DNA from: an uncultured Gammaproteobacteria bacterium
GTDB taxonomy: Bacteria > Patescibacteriota > Patescibacteriia > UBA9934 > CAZDDW01
NCBI GenBank assembly: GCA_965231015.1
Contig: OZ246408.1
Span: forward strand, 346,158-394,487
Reading direction: 5' to 3'
Length of the DNA stretch: 48,330 bases
Below are positions 7,269-27,311 of the stretch, piece by piece. The notes beneath the pieces are model-generated. The model worked only from the letters and a program-made list of their open reading frames with translations. It ran no database searches and had not been told where the DNA came from. Numbering within the stretch: position 1 is the first letter of the stretch; each line of letters opens with the position of its first letter. A program made the position numbers and the translations under genes.

Positions 7269-7383
7269 AGGAAACGCTCAGAAAATATTATCATCGAACC
7301 GCTCGGCCTCGGCTGGGCGGTTTTCGATCAAGACCCCTTAAGCTCTTGTTTTGTTAGCCTAAATATGGTAATTTCAGGTCAAT

Positions 7384-8868
7384 ATGGAGCAATATTCATA
7401 CGGAAAACATCGTTATTTTGAGGTAATTCCCGGACTCCTGCTGTGGTTCACTTTTGGCCTGGCGATTGTGTTATCTTTTGTCGCACCAATCTGGGCTATT
7501 ATTTTCATTATAATTTTTGACCTGTATTGGGTTTTCCGGGTGAGTTATTTTATTTTCTATTTGGTTTTGTCGTGGCGGAAGTATAGAGCTTACACAAAAA
7601 AAGATTGGTTTTTAGAAGTGGAGCAGATTGAGGATTGGCAAAAGTTGTACCATTTTGTTTTTCTACCAACTTACAAAGAAAGTATCGGTATCATCCGTGA
7701 TACCTTGAACGCAATAAAGAACTCGAAGTATCCGAACAAAAAGTTTGTGATTGTTTTAGGAGGTGAAGAAGGCGACAAGGAACACTTTAGAGAAAATGCT
7801 CAAAAGGTGTACGAGGAATACAATGATGTTTTTTTCAAACTGATCATTACTGAACATCTGAAGGGTCTGCCAAATGAAATTCCCGGCAAGGGATCAAACA
7901 TGAATTGGATGGGGCACCAGGTGAAAAAAGTTATTGATCAAAATTTAAAGATTCCTTACGAGGATATTGTAGTCTCGGCTCTCGACGTCGACACCAATGT
8001 CCATCCTCAATATTTTGCTTGTTTGGCGTATCATTATTTGACTCACCCCAATCCTACTCATTCCAGTTATCAGCCGCTCACGCTTTATTCGAACAATATC
8101 TGGGAAGCAACTGCTCCGGTTCGAATCCAGGCGTTTAGTAATACTTTTTGGTTATTAACTGAGTTGGCTCGGCCAAATCGATTGTGGACTTTCTCTTCCC
8201 ATTCTATGCCGTGGAAGATGCTCGTTGACGTTGGTTTTTGGCAAAAAGACATGGTTAGTGAAGACTCAAGAATTTTTTTACAGGGCTTAATTCGTTATCA
8301 CGGCGATTATGAAGTCACTCCACTTTATATCCCGGTGAACCTTGATGCCTTAATGGGTGAAGGATTCTTCGATACACTTAGCGCGCTTTACAAACAACAA
8401 CGGCGTTGGGCCTGGGGAGTAGAACACTTACCGTATATGTTGGTTGAGTTTATAAAAGATAAGCAGATGCCATTCCGAGTCAAGCTCAAATATGTATTTA
8501 ATCAGATTGAAGGAATGTATACCTGGGCCACAGCACCAATTTTGATTTTCATTCTTGGGTGGTTGCCGCTTTGGGTGATCAAGGATACCGAGGCAACCAG
8601 TGTTTTGGTTCAGAACGCTCCGTTTACTCTAGAGTGGCTGATGCGTTTGGCCATGCTGGGAATTTTTATTTCCGGATTTTTAAGTGTGTCCTTTTTGCCA
8701 CGTCGGCCCAAGAAGGTTAAGCCTTTAGCCTGGGCAGTAATGATTTTGCAATGGGCGTTGCTCCCAATTACTTTTGTAGTATTCGGTGCTTTACCAGCGG
8801 TAGATGCTCAAACTCGATTAATGCTTGGAAAATACCTCGGCTTTAACGTAACTAAGAAACAGCGCTAA
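7384..8868 (+). CDS. membrane-embedded family 2 glycosyltransferase (processive, cellulose-synthase-like)
   Basis: 494 aa. N- and C-terminal TM helices, LPTYKE, a DVD-type motif and the QQRRWAWG (QxxRW) motif. Confidence 0.75.
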   Translation: MEQYSYGKHRYFEVIPGLLLWFTFGLAIVLSFVAPIWAIIFIIIFDLYWVFRVSYFIFYLVLSWRKYRAYTKKDWFLEVEQIEDWQKLYHFVFLPTYKESIGIIRDTLNAIKNSKYPNKKFVIVLGGEEGDKEHFRENAQKVYEEYNDVFFKLIITEHLKGLPNEIPGKGSNMNWMGHQVKKVIDQNLKIPYEDIVVSALDVDTNVHPQYFACLAYHYLTHPNPTHSSYQPLTLYSNNIWEATAPVRIQAFSNTFWLLTELARPNRLWTFSSHSMPWKMLVDVGFWQKDMVSEDSRIFLQGLIRYHGDYEVTPLYIPVNLDALMGEGFFDTLSALYKQQRRWAWGVEHLPYMLVEFIKDKQMPFRVKLKYVFNQIEGMYTWATAPILIFILGWLPLWVIKDTEATSVLVQNAPFTLEWLMRLAMLGIFISGFLSVSFLPRRPKKVKPLAWAVMILQWALLPITFVVFGALPAVDAQTRLMLGKYLGFNVTKKQR

Positions 8869-15688: not shown

Positions 15689-16462
15689 ATGAATGATCTG
15701 ATTCGAGAATTGAACCACATGGGTCTAAGTGAGAAAGAGGCCGCTGTTTATTTGGCGGCTATGGAGCTTGGTCCCTCAGTTGCTCAAGACATTGCCAAAA
15801 AAGCTAAAGTGAATCGAGCGACCACCTACGTGATGATCGATACTTTAAAGACACGTGGTCTGATGAGCTCGTTTTCTAAGGGTAAGAAAAAGTTTTTTTC
15901 TGCTGAAACTCCAGAGCGTTTGATGAGCATGGTGCGTCATCAGCGACAGGAACTTGAGGATAGGGAAACGGAACTAAGTAAGGTCATGCCACAACTGATG
16001 GCTCTCTTTAACGTGGAAGGAGTTAAGCCGCAAGTGCGTTTTTTGGAAGGGATTGAGGGACTGAAGACCATTCAGTCAGAACTTGATTCTCTTAAAGGAG
16101 AAGGAGTTCAAATTTTATCTTGGGACGACGCTTACGAATTTATTGATCGAGTTATTGAAGATCATGTTCAGAAGCGTATGAAAAGTTTCGAAAGCAACAG
16201 GACTTCTTTCCGATCAATTGTTGCGGTAAAAGACGAGAAGAAATTTGCCCAAGTTAAATATCCGGACTCAATTAAAATTAGAAAAGTCCCCTTTGATCAA
16301 TTTCCCATTCACGGCGAGATTACCATTAAAGAGGATAGAATAACCTTCTTTTCTTACAAGTCGTCCTTGTTGGCTATTGTGATTGTTAGCCAGGTGTTGG
16401 CTGACACGGCCAAAGCCTTGTTTGAATTAGCTTGGGTGGGAGCAGAAAAGAAAACAGGATAG
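15689..16462 (+). CDS. TrmB-family transcriptional regulator
   Basis: 257 aa. LSEKEAAVYLAAMELGPSVAQDIAKKAKVNRATTYVMIDTLKTRGL is the typical TrmB HTH. Confidence 0.75.
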   Translation: MNDLIRELNHMGLSEKEAAVYLAAMELGPSVAQDIAKKAKVNRATTYVMIDTLKTRGLMSSFSKGKKKFFSAETPERLMSMVRHQRQELEDRETELSKVMPQLMALFNVEGVKPQVRFLEGIEGLKTIQSELDSLKGEGVQILSWDDAYEFIDRVIEDHVQKRMKSFESNRTSFRSIVAVKDEKKFAQVKYPDSIKIRKVPFDQFPIHGEITIKEDRITFFSYKSSLLAIVIVSQVLADTAKALFELAWVGAEKKTG

Positions 16463-16493
16463 ACAAGGTGGACTCGTCTATCCGTAGTAGCTA

Positions 16494-16520
16494 CGACTGT
16501 CTCGTTTCAGTCGTTTTTTT
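16494..16520 (+). terminator. rho-independent terminator of the TrmB-like gene
   Basis: CGACTG-8 nt-CAGTCG followed by seven T. Confidence 0.7.
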
Positions 16521-16546
16521 GCTTCAGCGCCGGCTTGAGCCGGCTG

Positions 16547-16720
16547 TCAACATCCGCCACAGGCACCGCACATGTGGCCGGCTCCGTTGAATACGAAGGC
16601 TCGCATGACGCCGCCGTGGTGGTGGGGATCGTTGCCGTCACCACAGTTTCTCAGAACACCCTTGGAAAGATTTTCTTCGCACTCGGTCAGGGCGATCTGG
16701 TTCAGCCTGCTTGAACTCAT
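16547..16720 (-). CDS. 57-aa His/Cys-rich peptide ending ...HHHGGVMRAFVFNGAGHMCGACGGC (candidate RiPP precursor or metallopeptide)
   Basis: Internal ATG at 16720, preceded by AAGGAGAC with 7-nt spacing. Has its own promoter. TGA at 16547-16549 is followed by hairpin GCCGGC-TTGA-GCCGGC. Confidence 0.5.
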   Translation of the reverse strand: MSSSRLNQIALTECEENLSKGVLRNCGDGNDPHHHGGVMRAFVFNGAGHMCGACGGC

Positions 16721-16812
16721 GGCCTTGTCTCCTTTCCAGGAGACTCGGTGTCGTTGCCGATCTCCTGCCTGTCTTGGATGTTGTTTATTTTTTGTCACGA
16801 ATGCGACAGGGT

Positions 16813-16841
16813 AATTTAGCATAAACATGTAATGTTGTCAA
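16813..16841 (-). promoter_or_regulatory. sigma70-like promoter for the 57-aa peptide
   Basis: Minus strand: TTGACA (16841-16836), 17 nt, TAAATT (16818-16813). The 5' UTR holds hairpin GTCTCC-TGGAAA-GGAGAC (16744-16727), which includes the SD. Confidence 0.5.
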
Positions 16842-16901
16842 GGAAGATAAACATGGATTTTGGCTAAAATAGGTAGAATTGGCTTAAAATGTTGCCGACC
16901 C

Positions 16902-16930
16902 TTGACAATATTTGATTCATATGTTAATTT
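16902..16930 (+). promoter_or_regulatory. divergent sigma70-like promoter
   Basis: TTGACA (16902-16907), 17 nt, TAATTT (16925-16930). The -35 context CCTTGACAA is the same as in the minus-strand promoter. Confidence 0.45.
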
Positions 16931-16937
16931 GCCGAGT

Positions 16938-17073
16938 TCCCGTTAAGGCGGGAATATGAGGGGGGGGAGAGTGAAAAAGTCCGTTAGTGTGAGCCATGCT
17001 TGCAAATGAGCGGGCTTTTTCAATTTATTTGGAAATCAAAAACCCCTGAAGAAATTCTCTTCAGGGGTTTTTG
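16938..17073 (+). ncRNA. candidate ~135-nt small RNA (promoter to terminator unit), unclassified
   Basis: Runs from the predicted start after 16930 to the 10-bp terminator at 17043-17067. Hairpin TTCCCG-TTAAGG-CGGGAA. Only a 17-codon frame without a clear SD. Confidence 0.3.
17036..17073. terminator. bidirectional rho-independent terminator
   Basis: CCCCTGAAGA-aattc-TCTTCAGGGG with flanking A-run and T-run. Lies downstream of the 371-aa ORF on the minus strand. Confidence 0.75.
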
Positions 17074-17118
17074 GATACCCTCGAACGCTAGTTCAAGGGT
17101 GAAAAGGTAGGAAAAGAT

Positions 17119-18234
17119 CTAGAGCTCGATGCCGTCGTCCGGCACCGTGCCCTGGTACTCGGGCACAGTGCCGGATCGGCTCGGCTCGGTACCGACAGCG
17201 CGTCGTTCCTGCTCGGCTCGCAGGTGCGAGTCGAAGGCATGGAAGAGCGCCATGGCGTCGCGCTTGCGCCGACCCGAGTTGGCGGCGGAGGTTCCGAAGG
17301 CGATCAGTTCGCGTCGGATCTCCGATTCTTTGCCCAGGTCGTCGATGGCGAGTGCCACGAGCTCGGCCGAACTCATCTCGGCGAACCGACAGCGTCCAGC
17401 CTCAGCGATCTGTTCAGCCAGTCGCCGCTTGAGCTGGTCGTGCTCGTTGAAGCATTGCTGACGCTCTGCTCCTGTGAGCCGCTCGCGCCCGGCGGCACGG
17501 CGCATCTCGTTGATGCGCCTGTGTGCCTTGTCCTTGCTCGTCGAGAGCAAGGCGGTCAGGATGTCACCGGGGCTCGCCAGCACGGCTTCGGTGGTGAGAC
17601 CGGCTCCGGCGAGCGGGGCGATGAACTCGGCCGCGTCTCGCTGCTGTTCGGGCAGCATTGCCCGAAACCGCCGTAGCAACCGGTTGACGTCCCGCTTGGT
17701 GCCTTCATCGGCACGCAGCTTCGCGGGCTTGGCCGGACGGTGCTTGCGCGGCTTGGCCGGCTTGCGGCCGACGTAGGTCTTCATCTCCTCGCGCAGGAGT
17801 CCGCACGCGCTACCCCGCTTGCCGCGCTTGGAGCGGCGCTGGCGCTGACCGCGTCCGTCGTAGCTCGAACGCGTGCCGCGGGGGGCGGCGCTGATCACCT
17901 CATGAAGCTCGGTTTCGAGCTCGTTCACGAGCTGGTCGTAGGCCAGACCGTCGCGGAGGTCGTCGTCGAACTCGAACGGCTGGACCGCGAGCTCGAACTC
18001 GCCCGCGGTGTCGTCCTCGAGTTCATCACCGAGGATCCAGGTCTCGAGCACGTCCCGGTTGGGCTCGTGCTCGGGCTCTTCCTGAGCCGTGATCTCGAAC
18101 GGGTTGAAGATCTGACGCGTTCGCCAGATCTCCCGGTAGTCCTTTCGCCACTCGTTCCAGCTCTGCTGCTGGAGCTCGGCCGAAGGCAACCTTCCGATCA
18201 ACATCCACTTCTGCTGGTTCAACAAATTTTTCAT
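17119..18234 (-). CDS. hypothetical 371-aa protein (acidic N-terminal part, Arg/Lys-rich centre, helical C-terminal part)
   Basis: Longest frame in the islet, with pronounced GC3 bias. ATG at 18234 (MKNLLNQQKW) is preceded by AAAGGAAA. No catalytic motif recognised. Confidence 0.7.
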   Translation of the reverse strand: MKNLLNQQKWMLIGRLPSAELQQQSWNEWRKDYREIWRTRQIFNPFEITAQEEPEHEPNRDVLETWILGDELEDDTAGEFELAVQPFEFDDDLRDGLAYDQLVNELETELHEVISAAPRGTRSSYDGRGQRQRRSKRGKRGSACGLLREEMKTYVGRKPAKPRKHRPAKPAKLRADEGTKRDVNRLLRRFRAMLPEQQRDAAEFIAPLAGAGLTTEAVLASPGDILTALLSTSKDKAHRRINEMRRAAGRERLTGAERQQCFNEHDQLKRRLAEQIAEAGRCRFAEMSSAELVALAIDDLGKESEIRRELIAFGTSAANSGRRKRDAMALFHAFDSHLRAEQERRAVGTEPSRSGTVPEYQGTVPDDGIEL

Positions 18235-18313
18235 CAAGTTTCCTTTCGGCCGTGAGCGGCCAGGGACCCCATTGGCTGGTCCGGATCGACATCCTCGTCT
18301 TAGAGGCGTCGCG

Positions 18314-18349
18314 TTAAAAAACAAAAAGGCACCCCAAAAACGGTGTCCT
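18314..18349 (-). terminator. terminator-like hairpin between the 36-aa ORF and the 371-aa ORF
   Basis: Minus strand: AGGACACC-loop-GGTGCCTT followed by TTTGTTTTTT. Confidence 0.4.
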
Positions 18350-18461
18350 CCCTTAAGTTAGCAATTTGCCATGCGGAAACATCGAATTCGGATTCAATAT
18401 CTCTGCGCGGCGGGGAAGGGGTGAACCTTCCCCGAGAGATTGGAACCGAGCAGGTTCCAAT

Positions 18462-18572
18462 CTAACTGACCGCCGTGAGGATTGCCGGCAAGGCGATCAT
18501 GATACTAACGGCGATGATTGCCGTCAGACCAGTGATCGACCGGTGGCGATTTTCCATCTCTTCGTTGCTCAT
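18462..18572 (-). CDS. 36-aa hydrophobic peptide MSNEEMENRHRSITGLTAIIAVSIMIALPAILTAVS (single TM)
   Basis: Not in the ORF track because it is under 60 aa. ATG at 18572 is preceded by GGGAGGAAG. TAG at 18462-18464 is followed directly by two hairpins (18439-18461 and 18412-18433). Confidence 0.5.
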   Translation of the reverse strand: MSNEEMENRHRSITGLTAIIAVSIMIALPAILTAVS

Positions 18573-18603
18573 GTCTTCCTCCCGAGGCGGTGTTGTTTGA
18601 GTT

Positions 18604-18805
18604 CCGCCCATGACTCTGAGGAGCTCCCCCGTGCTAAAGACGGGGAAGAGGCACAGTGACCGTTACAAAGTAACAGGTGTATGCCGTGATGATCAGGTGT
18701 GTGGCACAAGTTAGCGTTGCCAAGTTGTACCACTCGATCATCGCCGTGTCCTTTTAGCATAGCCATCCGGACAACGGATTAACCCTTCCTCAGAGTCATG
18801 AGCGG
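18604..18805 (-). promoter_or_regulatory. structured leader closed by an 18-bp long-range helix
   Basis: 18788-18805 pairs with 18604-18621: 17 Watson-Crick pairs plus one G-U, but only in the minus-strand sense. About 166 nt are enclosed, with internal hairpins. It ends about 30 nt before the peptide ATG. Confidence 0.45.
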
Positions 18806-18816
18806 AAAATGTAATG

Positions 18817-18941
18817 TAAAAAGCTGATTACTGGGTTTAATCGGGGAATAAACACAATAATCAGCTCTTTCTCTCTCTCCCCAAGTCTATTTTTATCCGG
18901 CTTCGACCCCGGATTGATGCTAAAAATAGCAATTATTTTGA
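18817..18941 (-). ncRNA. promoter-proximal stem-loops ending in a terminator-like hairpin (small RNA or attenuator)
   Basis: Stem-loop at 18887-18929 (CTATTTTTA/TAAAAATAG with inner ATCCGG/CCGGAT). A 9-bp hairpin AGCTGATTA/TAATCAGCT (18822-18866) is followed by a T-run. Confidence 0.3.
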
Positions 18942-18947
18942 CTGTTC

Positions 18948-18976
18948 AATATAGCATAAAAACAGACTTTTGTCAA
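18948..18976 (-). promoter_or_regulatory. sigma70-like promoter driving the islet-3 minus-strand transcript
   Basis: Minus strand: TTGACA (18976-18971), 17 nt, TATATT (18953-18948). Confidence 0.55.
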
Positions 18977-19211
18977 GCCTCAGACACAAAAAATATGCTA
19001 AAATTAGATAAATTTGCTCGGTTATCTTTCTGAGAGAACCACTCAGCCTCGGACATGCAAAATGTCAGGTTGAATCTTAGCCTTGTTATGATGCTCGCCG
19101 ATCAAGAGTCAATGTTATTAGTCTTTTAAGGCAATTTTGTAATCGGTAAGCAAATTTCTCTCAGAAAGGATACCCTCGCAGTGGGAATGAAACAGGAGGG
19201 AAGCGCGGCAA

Positions 19212-19240
19212 TTGAATTGTTAGCCTTAATCAGCTATAAT
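19212..19240 (+). promoter_or_regulatory. sigma70-like promoter of holB (near-leaderless)
   Basis: TTGAAT, 17 nt, TATAAT. The ATG at 19250 lies 10 nt after the -10 element. Confidence 0.5.
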
Positions 19241-19249
19241 TTAGTCATT

Positions 19250-20224
19250 ATGAGGCTTCAAAATAACAAGCCCCGTCTTTCTGACGAAAGTAAACGGAGC
19301 AAATCAATTATCGGTCATACTAAAATTTTAGATTTGTTGCAGCGTGGGGTTAAAAATAACTCTGTGGCTCATGCCTATGTTTTTTTAGGGCCGGCTCGAA
19401 TTGGAAAAAACACCGTGGCCAAGTGGTTAGCTCGTCAGCTGCTGAATGACTTTGAGGGTTCTTTTGAAGCCCATCCAAACGTTTCTTTGGTGCGTCGTGA
19501 ATACGATGAAAAAAAGAAAAAATTAAAATCCAAGATTTCCATTGAGCATATTCGGGCGTTGCGTGAGCGGCTAGGAATGTCTACTTTCGGACAAGGTTGG
19601 AAAGTTGCAATTATTGAAGAAGCCGAGACCATGAGTTTAGATGCGGCTAACGCACTTTTAAAAACACTGGAAGAGCCAAGTGGTCAGACCACAGTAATAT
19701 TAATTGCTTCAAGCGAAAACGGAATTCCAGCCACCATCTTTTCTCGAGCTCAAGTGATTTATTTTAATCTGGTGCCAAACCAAGAAATCAAATTAGCTTT
19801 TCAGGACGATGTTTTAGTGGATGAGCTGGTCGCCCACGCCGCTGGCCGGCCAGGTGTTGCAATCAGTATGAAAGATGACGCTGAAGATTTTGAGGCTCGT
19901 CGGCAAACTGAGCAGGAGTTCTGGCAGTTGCTGGAGGGAACGCTTTCGGAACGAATGGCAGCAGCAGCTCGGTTACCAAAGGGTGTGTCGGCTCGAGAGG
20001 ATGTGCGAGCTAAATTGAATCGGTTTGAGGTTAAGTTGCGCGAGTTGCTGTTGATGGCCAGTGGTTGTGATGAACTGGTAAGCTCAGCTCAGGCTAAACG
20101 TTTGGCGGGCAAGGATTCTAATCATTGGAAAAAAGCTTTGCAGACATTGAGTGAATGTCGATCCGCTCTTGAGGCCAATACTAACCCACAACTTGTGCTT
20201 GAAAACTTTCTTATCAAACTATAA
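19250..20224 (+). CDS. holB: DNA polymerase III subunit delta prime
   Basis: Contains HAYVFLGPARIGKNT and KVAIIEEAETMSLDAANALLKTLEEP. Start chosen at 19250 because the track start at 19181 lies upstream of the promoter. Confidence 0.75.
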   Translation: MRLQNNKPRLSDESKRSKSIIGHTKILDLLQRGVKNNSVAHAYVFLGPARIGKNTVAKWLARQLLNDFEGSFEAHPNVSLVRREYDEKKKKLKSKISIEHIRALRERLGMSTFGQGWKVAIIEEAETMSLDAANALLKTLEEPSGQTTVILIASSENGIPATIFSRAQVIYFNLVPNQEIKLAFQDDVLVDELVAHAAGRPGVAISMKDDAEDFEARRQTEQEFWQLLEGTLSERMAAAARLPKGVSAREDVRAKLNRFEVKLRELLLMASGCDELVSSAQAKRLAGKDSNHWKKALQTLSECRSALEANTNPQLVLENFLIKL

Positions 20225-26724: not shown

Positions 26725-26752
26725 AAAAAGCCCCGATCATTCGGGGTTTTTG
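26724..26752. terminator. bidirectional rho-independent terminator
   Basis: A-run, GCCCCGA-tcat-TCGGGGT, T-run. Confidence 0.75.
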
Positions 26753-26808
26753 CTTTGAATAGAATAGCTCCCAAACCAGATTGGCTTGGGAGCAAGGAGG
26801 TCGGTGGC

Positions 26809-27174
26809 TCAGGCAGGGTTGGGGTCAAGACTGAGAAACTGGACGTTCGGTCCGTCAGGGTCCAGAGTTTTGGCACCGGATTCATCGTCTTCGTCACTGA
26901 CGACCACCACCGTTCCGCTTTCCGTGGTTCCGGTGGCGGTGAAGCGACGCCTGGTTATGTGGGGATGACGAGAGATGGTGAGCCCTCGCCGAGAAGGGTC
27001 TGGGCGGGCTACGGCGAATTCGGCCTTACAGCTGGTGCACCGCAGCCAGGTTTCACACTCACCCTGCAGCATGGTCTCACACTCGCTGTGGTGGGAAAAA
27101 CAGTGCGGACAACCGTATTTGATGAGATCCGCTGAGCGGATGCAAATAATGCTATTACCGGCCTGTTCGCTCAC
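26809..27174 (-). CDS. 121-aa zinc-ribbon protein in GC-rich islet 4 (GTG start)
   Basis: GGAGG lies 6 nt before GTG 27174. CPHC...CTSC cysteine pairs and an acidic tail. 37 of 60 G+C at 26941-27000. Hairpin GCTCCCAA/TTGGGAGC after the stop. Confidence 0.6.
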   Translation of the reverse strand: MSEQAGNSIICIRSADLIKYGCPHCFSHHSECETMLQGECETWLRCTSCKAEFAVARPDPSRRGLTISRHPHITRRRFTATGTTESGTVVVVSDEDDESGAKTLDPDGPNVQFLSLDPNPA

Positions 27175-27311
27175 GTGCCGCCTCCGCTTGCTTGAGCATG
27201 GTTGTTAAATGTCCGAAGAAACAAATCTACTATATTATTGTAGAAAAATCAAGGGCTAGTCAAGAGATTGACTTTTTATGCTACAATGGGACAAGAATTA
27301 ATCGAATTAAT

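Follow-up and report, generated by a model that had tools for sequence, protein, structure and literature searches.

The genomes of Patescibacteria are tiny, consist mostly of genes of unknown function and have yielded very few regulatory RNAs. When a short block of such a genome departs sharply from its surroundings in base composition, the question arises whether it was imported from a distant donor or belongs to the lineage that carries it. Such a block lies between a TrmB-family gene and holB in the window, by which we mean the whole stretch of 48,330 nucleotides of contig OZ246408.1 that was analysed. The original prediction described it as a coherent, separately promoted minus-strand module of foreign composition that had recently been acquired from a high-GC donor, possibly by transfer from an actinobacterial host to its episymbiont. 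The first half of that description is supported and the second is not. Judged by comparison with its relatives, the block is the window copy of an old clade-specific accessory locus, held at a fixed position between TrmB and holB and transcribed against the flanking genes, and its strongest conservation is that of a leader RNA, not of the GC-rich gene. The leader appears to represent an undescribed structured RNA family of about 200 nt, with 15 distinct instances. The reading we favour, with about as much confidence as doubt, is that of a clade-specific cassette locus in which this RNA would act in cis on variable small membrane proteins and charged proteins. This RNA, together with a clade-wide slot of orphan genes with a persistent excess of G+C at third codon positions (GC3), makes the locus more interesting than a routine island of horizontal gene transfer (HGT), though not for the reason first proposed.

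The predicted composition was borne out. The window as a whole has 43.8% G+C, and in 300-nt windows the stretch 17100-18300 rises to 0.60-0.70; shoulders near 0.53 (16350-16800 and 18150-18750) lead back to about 0.40 beyond both sides. Within it, the open reading frame (ORF) of a 371-aa orphan protein (17119-18234, minus strand), preceded by a Shine-Dalgarno (SD) site, has G+C fractions of 0.685, 0.457 and 0.828 at the first, second and third codon positions (GC1, GC2 and GC3). Its GC3 lies about six standard deviations above the remaining 52 ORFs of the window (mean 0.422, standard deviation 0.064, maximum 0.59), and its GC1 is likewise elevated (0.69 versus about 0.52). Because of this periodicity the ORF is genuinely coding; GC-rich noncoding DNA could not produce the pattern. 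Compositionally, the block has the atypical character of a genomic island (G+C 0.60-0.70 versus 0.44; GC3 0.83 versus 0.42 +/- 0.06).

Two explanations of the jump, a chimeric contig and a recent arrival, can be weighed against the distribution of the block in related genomes. The same arrangement recurs in independent assemblies, namely L001 (from a Logan SRA run), L002/L008, L090 and many JGI/ENA contigs, which argues against the chimera. L001, an 18.8-kb contig, carries in order GT4, TrmB, a His/Cys peptide, a 378-aa protein, a 36-aa transmembrane (TM) peptide, holB, a BNR-repeat protein and RRF, with an equal GC spike of 0.62-0.69. L002, found by scanning GTDB species genomes with TrmB (61% identical), has a 7.7-kb island of 60-74% G+C between TrmB and holB, with GC3 up to 0.95-0.99 and on the strand opposite to both flanking genes. 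The L002 record (CAZDDW010000001.1) is titled 'uncultured Gammaproteobacteria bacterium'; its order MreB-GT4-TrmB-island-holB-BNR fits the Patescibacteria loci, and the label is probably wrong. Scanning metagenomes with a TrmB alignment added 80 more loci. Where TrmB was at least 37% identical and the order GT4-TrmB...holB-BNR was visible (L015, L018, L019, L020, L024, L045 and L055), the gap measured 1.4-6.3 kb and was the highest-GC stretch of the locus. The synteny and the GC peak in the gap were likewise seen in L001 and L002/L008, and the TrmB-proximal part was visible in L011, L016/17, L021, L025 and L090. The gap ORFs lie on the minus strand, with GC3 of 0.77-0.97 and GC2 of 0.37-0.51.

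Presence of the block at this junction in relatives had been proposed as a check, and GC-rich minus-strand ORFs occupy the gap in at least 13 independent related Patescibacteria contigs. At all loci the island ORFs have a GC3 of 0.78-0.97, compared with 0.38-0.68 in orthologous core genes, and hosts with GC3 as high as 0.65-0.68 carry islands at 0.87-0.97. A clade-wide block of similar composition is what the original prediction had named as speaking against recent acquisition. The junction is empty in L023, where just 96 nt separate TrmB from holB; the island is therefore dispensable. One protein of a family shared by L045, L055 and L021 corresponds to an NCBI hypothetical protein of a Candidatus Giovannonibacteria metagenome-assembled genome, and the clade is, on this evidence, related to Candidatus Giovannonibacteria. 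In L001 holB is separated from the island promoter by an additional 84-aa ORF (7271-7525, plus strand; G+C about 0.6, GC3 0.73) that has no counterpart in the window, and therefore the holB-proximal edge of the locus is also variable.

How long the GC-rich gene has been in place was estimated by comparing L001 with the window at the third base of codons that agree in amino acid and in their first two bases. Core genes (the DUF4012 protein, MreB, GT4, TrmB, holB, the BNR protein, RRF, GlyRS, the M16 peptidase and TIM) have reached 0.56-0.68 of compositional saturation, and the 371-aa gene 0.59. Because its third-position divergence equals that of the flanks, the gene must already have been carried by the ancestor that the window shares with L001 and have been inherited vertically. 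The protein itself evolves fast: the nonsynonymous and synonymous distances (dN and dS) are 0.29 and 0.90, with a dN/dS of about 0.3, while dN in the flanks is 0.004-0.16. GC3 is still 0.78-0.81 in both lineages, and we infer that the high G+C is no fresh import and predates their split. The locus is thus a rare natural case in which a GC3 of 0.8-0.97 has lasted in genomes of about 0.4 while synonymous sites reached about 60% saturation.

In this light it is extremely improbable that the block was recently acquired from a high-GC organism that does not belong to the clade, such as the actinobacterial host of an episymbiont. Such a transfer would account for the strongly atypical composition, and the 36-aa TM peptide of the island (TM36) does have a weak match to Pfam DUF6480, at an E of 0.038 that falls below the family cut-off. 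Against it, searches of 1.84 billion representative proteins and 5.8 billion protein clusters returned no homologue of the island proteins beyond this locus in the clade; position, promoter and leader RNA are conserved clade-wide; the 371-aa gene has co-diverged with its flanks; and mobility genes and flanking repeats are lacking. An ameliorating horizontally acquired island, as modelled by Lawrence and Ochman, would share the atypical composition at all codon positions and a possible GC-to-AT excess; the present block differs from one in having no tRNA or integrase association and no donor homologues, in occupying the same site throughout the clade and in its co-divergence. A screen for HGT relying on the composition jump alone would misscore the locus as a host-to-symbiont transfer, which is a caution for such screens. 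Overall, outside-donor transfer and misassembly, together with the prophage remnant and type I toxin module considered below, are all poorly supported.

If the high G+C is old, what maintains it? A process specific to the locus might keep the island GC-rich, either GC-biased gene conversion at a recombination hotspot or selection that acts on synonymous positions (for mRNA stability or structure, or for codon-dependent translation), GC3 then being an equilibrium value. Island GC3 is roughly constant at 0.78-0.97 and always above that of the host; the 371-aa gene has diverged like the core at synonymous sites and still shows a GC3 of about 0.8 in both lineages; the raised GC1 is expected under pervasive GC pressure; and hypervariable content between conserved flanks suggests frequent recombination. 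On the other side, when changes at 56 sites were polarized with the fragment on contig L089 as outgroup, G/C-to-A/T changes (S>W) outnumbered the reverse (W>S) by 11 to 2, an excess that comprises only 13 changes under a parsimony biased the same way and that hints at slow decay of the island G+C. By relaxation arithmetic, the divergence between the lineages just leaves room for a fall from about 0.97, as in L045, to about 0.76-0.80, so a special force is not strictly needed. Nor was any uptake-like or Chi-like oligomer enriched in the islands of 11 loci, where codon-pair effects alone appeared, and to our knowledge GC-biased conversion of this size has not been documented in bacteria. We consider this account of the block possible but doubtful.

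Orthologues of TrmB and GT4 in the clade range in GC3 from 0.20 (L012) to 0.78-0.86 (L010, L014 and L031), a span that is unusually wide for related small genomes. With core genes at 0.78-0.86, a high-GC source therefore exists inside the clade. As for where the composition comes from, we favour cassettes drawn from the high-GC part of the clade itself; a locus-specific process favouring G+C would be nearly as likely and the more remarkable of the two. Amelioration, GC-biased conversion and intra-clade exchange all become testable at this locus.

The deepest conservation lies elsewhere than in the GC-rich gene. In the DNA alignment of the window with L001, the best-conserved stretch runs from the promoter to just beyond TM36 (about 18990-18340) at 90-98% identity, exceeding both flanking genes and the GC-rich ORF. 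The 5' part of the leader transcript (18808-18942, minus strand), with three hairpins and a GGGGAGAGAGAG purine tract, is 95-98% identical although synonymous sites of the neighbouring genes are about 60% saturated, and is partly recognizable in L002 and L045. The leader of about 370 nt had been called highly structured, and its minimum free energy (MFE) of -269 kcal/mol, compared with -186.8 +/- 7.4 for shuffled sequences (z = -11.2), agrees. With the leader as query, nhmmer matched the gaps of L002 (several copies), L045, L015 and L018; a nonsignificant match in L021 (E=1.6) was later confirmed by covariance model. TrmB is just 39-61% identical in the matched loci.

From these matches a four-way-junction RNA domain emerged (18602-18807 in the window, minus strand), supported by covariance model, covariation and folds. 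Its conserved core of 96 nt (18744-18648) comprises arms P3 and P4. In P3 a stem of 7 bp (GAUGAUC/GAUCAUC in the window) leads over an internal loop into a 13-bp hairpin that contains an invariant G-U pair, by which the transcribed strand is fixed; an AYG linker leads to P4, a 6-bp stem around ACC, a small hairpin (often with a UUCG loop) and GGU, followed by CAC. A long-range helix, P1, encloses these arms and a variable hairpin P2; in the window 18807-18787 pairs with 18622-18602 (inverted repeat I3). P1 is near-perfect over 19-21 bp (5' ..CUGGAGGAGAGAG.., 3' ..CCUCCAGAU..); the inner part keeps CUGGAGG/CCUCCAG and leads to the purine-rich junction AGAGAG, and the outer part differs wholly among loci with complementarity maintained. 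The domain spans 170-225 nt, and its junction and loop nucleotides are invariant. MFE folds of eight instances share one four-way junction (P1, variable P2, P3 and P4), with an extra hairpin in the window and L002.

Compensatory changes are abundant and make the leader a well-supported new structured RNA. In the core seed of eight sequences 93.4% of alignment cells are paired, compared with 27-37% when the partners are slid, and 19/31 pairs show compensatory double changes, a result reached by 0/500 shuffles; on 14 hits the figures are 94.2% and 22/31. For P1 (13 sequences) 90.2% of cells are paired, compared with 34-48% when slid, and double changes occur in 15 of the 19 pairs. Over all shuffle controls 0-1 of 500 reached the observed values (1/500 for one of 15 measures). 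A covariance model, R1, built from the eight-sequence seed and applied to the window together with 87 loci (869 kb), gave 14 hits at E <= 1e-8, every one on the ORF strand inside the TrmB-holB gap; six were outside the seed (L055, L016, L019, L011 and two extra copies in L015), and a 15th instance came from L090, a locus reached independently through a cargo protein. The window RNA scored 98.6 bits (E = 1e-24) and was the sole match in the window. A 65-aa ORF within the RNA (18766-18569) was rejected as coding, since frame-shifting indels interrupt it in L001.

Known families do not cover this RNA. Against Rfam 15 the window gave nothing except tRNAs at gathering score and nothing at E <= 10 in 18300-18990, and four other loci gave no match at E <= 1. 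A promoter-pattern scan of IMG/VR had 0 matches, an RNA-pattern scan of the same collection had 10, of which the covariance model confirmed none, and a literature search found no description of this locus or RNA.

The placement of the domain is that of a cis leader: covarying structure in the 5' untranslated region (UTR), on the same strand, between promoter and ORF. In 9/13 instances the core is preceded, at a distance of 128-334 nt, by a promoter with a perfect TTGACA, a TG-extended -10 and 17 nt between them, the others being internal operon copies, and in the nine instances with a convincing callable ORF the first ORF begins 24-244 nt downstream on the same strand. Tandem or extra copies, both as adjacent pairs and as internal copies between ORFs, occur in L002 (13490-13803) and L015 (10339-10628 and 8371-8485). 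L002 also has a 5'-leader-like fragment (18052-17895) at the head of its second gene module. A pyrimidine-rich element (GUGUUCUUUUCAC) downstream of the RNA domain is shared by L045 (about 7165-7060), L055 (about 2555-2450) and L090 (about 425-530); in MFE folds it reaches over two covarying hairpins to pair with the SD region of the first ORF, and it is a possible translational expression platform. For TM36 of the window, the predicted fold leaves the SD site open and a terminator follows the gene.

The main rival to a cis-leader role is that the RNA is itself the real gene, a stable trans-acting or structural noncoding RNA freed by processing at P1, with the ORFs as passengers on its strong promoter. 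The covarying, near-perfect P1 duplex resembles the stems that bracket stable RNAs and serve in their processing, conservation of the junction and loop nucleotides reaches much deeper than that of any cargo protein, and the tandem copies in L002 and L015 point the same way. None of the instances examined has a terminator directly after the domain, however, every copy faces a same-strand downstream ORF region, and internal copies sit between operon ORFs without promoters of their own; we hold this rival to be unlikely. Still less can be said for a type I toxin-antitoxin-like system, in which the structured mRNA would control TM36 as a small hydrophobic toxic peptide and which we rate as very improbable. 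A 36-aa single-TM peptide behind a long structured leader invites the comparison, as do the small TM ORFs after the RNA in L002 and L016. TM36 is missing from most other RNA instances, though, and large soluble proteins directly follow the RNA in L045, L055, L090, L019 and L015; a promoter scan found no antisense promoter or RNA overlapping the TM36 mRNA, and the SD site of TM36 is not sequestered.

In the cassette reading that we favour, a consensus extended -10 promoter and the four-way-junction RNA form the constant part that heads a variable cargo, and the RNA would be the cis-acting 5' leader of the cassette mRNA and set the expression of the genes behind it. It might do so as a processing or stability element, the long P1 offering an RNase III-type duplex, or as a constitutively folded sensor or protein-binding platform. 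The 371-aa gene would be reached by read-through of the attenuator-like terminator after TM36, and cassettes from a high-GC, same-clade gene pool would be swapped by homologous recombination, with the conserved flanks and leader as its substrate, and then decay slowly. Junction riboswitches such as the cobalamin and lysine classes, and T-box leaders, are alike in lying in the 5' UTR behind a promoter, in their multi-helix junctions and covariation and in occasional tandem copies. They differ in that the present RNA has no Rfam 15 match, its closing helix, of 19-25 bp, is very stable instead of a short switchable P1 and its downstream genes are unrelated orphans, not a coherent regulon. Because P1 is so long and stable, a classical P1-switching riboswitch is disfavoured. 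Long near-perfect duplexes are substrates of RNase III-type cleavage, and rRNA precursor stems and the inter-cistronic R sites of phage T7 likewise place a long covarying duplex around structured RNA at the start of a polycistronic transcript. That likeness comes from general knowledge, and the part enclosed here is a conserved four-way junction in place of an rRNA or simple hairpin.

Several points weigh against this reading. The cis-acting role is proposed solely from where the RNA lies and which way it faces. For a typical switching helix P1 is too long and too stable, the instances have no common expression platform (the SD-sequestering element occurs just in L045, L055 and L090), and the downstream genes lack the shared function of a normal riboswitch regulon. 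The covariance model had no hit in three islands (L020, L024 and L025). The case for a same-clade high-GC origin is indirect, L010, L014 and L031 being known by their core genes and not by islands; islands of 0.87-0.97 in hosts at 0.65-0.68 would fit a locus-specific bias equally well; and the small S>W excess belongs among these points.

The cargo offers little help from known families. The 371-aa protein has an acidic, largely disordered N-terminal half, an invariant basic GRKPAKPRKHRPAKP tandem repeat (17713-17760) and a helical C-terminal domain; its MKNL..KWM start is kept in L001, which has an in-frame 3-nt indel. The same-locus protein of L001 (P0002, 63% identity) is its sole full-length relative in 5.8 billion protein clusters; one further relative retrieved was a gene-caller version of the protein itself. 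Among 1.84 billion representative proteins, a HMMER profile of the two proteins recovered nothing besides the query and a 124-aa fragment, P0003, whose contig L089 (543 nt) has the same conserved 3' UTR and terminator. The AlphaFold2 model has a mean predicted local distance difference test score (pLDDT) of 51, with the N-terminal 226 residues disordered and residues 230-350 helical at about 57-89. Foldseek with this model found no PDB match at E <= 0.001, and a sequence search of the PDB was also blank. The protein has no Pfam, NCBIfam or PADLOC family match and a single weak PHROG hit of unknown function (phrog_32985, E=0.006); tblastn against phage and plasmid collections gave no match and an IMG/VR protein scan 0 hits.

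Both small products had been described correctly, together with the 371-aa ORF and the three SD sites. TM36 (18462-18572, minus strand; MSNEEMENRHRSITGLTAIIAVSIMIALPAILTAVS, SD GGGAGGAAG) is 97% identical in L001 and is coding, because six of the seven substitutions fall at third codon positions. The 57-aa His/Cys peptide (16547-16720, minus strand; ..CGDGNDPHHHGGVMRAFVFNGAGHMCGACGGC, SD AAGGAGAC) belongs to an 'NGAGH' family of four members, all at this position (the window, L001, L002/L008 and L009); its C-terminal half is conserved, with changes mostly in third positions. It has no Pfam, NCBIfam or PDB match, and no modifying-enzyme domain that would suggest a ribosomally synthesized and post-translationally modified peptide was found in the island or its neighbours.

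Across loci the cargo is, by sequence comparison, composed of clade-endemic, fast-evolving orphans that are mostly non-homologous to one another. All-versus-all BLASTP of 39 island ORFs from 14 loci, the window and L001 included, linked close relatives only, and a profile-profile comparison of the window family with the seven-member L045/L055/L021 family gave no homology (probability 0.2%). Scans of 35 cargo proteins from 12 loci against Pfam, PHROG and PADLOC returned 0 PHROG hits at E<=0.01, one marginal PADLOC hit (JetC, E=0.008) and, in Pfam, a stray hit of a single protein to a MopE-type metal-binding motif (E = 1e-5); no match in the three collections was judged credible. In L024 (3091-3534 and 5029-5883, minus strand) and L025 the cargo consists of two predicted lipoproteins (lipobox ..FACGG / ..ALACSS), in which Cys-rich modules occur together with long acidic linkers rich in Asp and Pro; we suspect that the MopE-type hit is one of these. 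Many of the larger cargo proteins have, as read from their sequences, both acidic stretches that are probably disordered and a basic segment rich in Arg, Lys and Pro, which might conceivably bind nucleic acids, and a small single- or multi-pass membrane protein usually accompanies the larger one.

Variable content of this kind, many small orphans with TM segments and the empty 96-nt site of L023 would suit a mobile element integrated at this junction as its target, be it a satellite, a degraded prophage or one of another kind. The prediction that no integrase, transposase or flanking repeat is present held up, however: Pfam and PHROG scans of the window and the cargo proteins found no integrase or transposase domain and no replication or structural gene, a repeat search found no flanking direct repeats or att sites, and the nearest tRNA is 7 kb away. 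The absence of PHROG hits beyond the weak phrog_32985 match, with JetC the one marginal exception in the cargo scans, and the lack of any phage or plasmid collection match or confirmed IMG/VR protein or RNA match point the same way, and a mobile element seems improbable.

Hypervariable hotspots such as O-antigen or capsule loci and integron cassette arrays share with the present locus a fixed position, conserved flanks, non-homologous cargo, an empty site and one conserved promoter-proximal element driving variable genes. Integrase and attC-like repeats are absent here, in contrast, and the cargo is clade-endemic. In our experience accessory hotspots are usually AT-rich, whereas here the composition deviates upward, to a GC3 of 0.8-0.97. 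A bolder and distinctly unlikely proposal would make the RNA a new functional class limited to Giovannonibacteria-like Patescibacteria, be it a sensor, a ribozyme or a recognition element for cassette exchange, within an integron-like but integrase-less 'expression slot' where clade-endemic orphans would undergo continual replacement and be kept at extreme GC3 through a locus-specific mechanism such as strong GC-biased gene conversion.

The transcriptional organization agrees largely with what had been predicted. On the minus strand the order is promoter, 5' hairpins, RNA, TM36, terminator, 371-aa gene, bidirectional terminator, second promoter and 57-aa gene. The main promoter (18948-18989; TTGTGTCT-N4-CTTGACAAA-N11-ATGCTATATT, 11/12 matches) has a -35 TTGACA and a TG-extended -10 TATATT with a 17-nt spacer (18976-18948), is single in the window and is kept in L001, L002 and L045. 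A promoter scan placed that of the 57-aa unit at 16841-16813 (minus strand; TTGACA-17-TAAATT), also with a TG-extended -10. Similar sequence is shared by the two promoters through the -35 and about 20-40 nt upstream (repeat families D5/D6), with common boxes at 16790-16808 / 16863-16884 and 18968-18986 / 18997-19018. These boxes could be a common operator or UP element, for which the adjoining TrmB-family protein would be a candidate regulator.

Between TM36 and the 371-aa gene lies an intrinsic terminator or attenuator (18315-18349, minus strand; AGGACACC..GGUGCCU and a U-run), read from the sequence; the terminator scan missed it, probably owing to its bulged stem. It is kept in L001 with a compensating bulge, and two covarying hairpins precede it. 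A perfect 16-bp bidirectional terminator hairpin (17037-17073, inverted repeat I5), kept in L001 and L089, lies 3' of the 371-aa gene. The terminators expected on the TrmB side were found as back-to-back hairpins (16457-16514) serving the TrmB-family gene on the plus strand (16493-16514) and the island on the minus strand (16483-16457), in a region kept in L001.

The small-RNA-like (sRNA-like) promoter-to-terminator unit of the original prediction is most simply read, by way of correction, on the plus strand as a candidate sRNA of about 85 nt, convergent with the 371-aa gene (16902-17022). Its promoter, TTGACA(16902)-17-TAATTT(16930), spanning 16902-16930, is followed by a UUCCCG/CGGGAA hairpin, a G-run that resembles the GGGGAGAGAGAG tract of the leader and a terminator at 16998-17022. 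The promoter is part of an inverted-repeat promoter pair (I1); L001 has both the -35 and the -10 as well as a covarying hairpin (GUUCUC/GAGAAC), and the 3' part is kept in L089.

At the other edge, the plus-strand promoter-like site anticipated near holB lies at 19212-19240, within a long holB ORF that begins at a GTG at 19181. A conserved N-terminus, MRLQNNKP, starts at 19250 and probably marks the true start of holB. Second in G+C within the window (0.58) comes the stretch 26750-27200, which has no Rfam match and lies directly 3' of a tRNA-Thr/Tyr/Thr cluster; there a 121-aa Cys-rich (CPHC...CTSC) ORF on the minus strand overlaps a 126-aa ORF on the plus strand.

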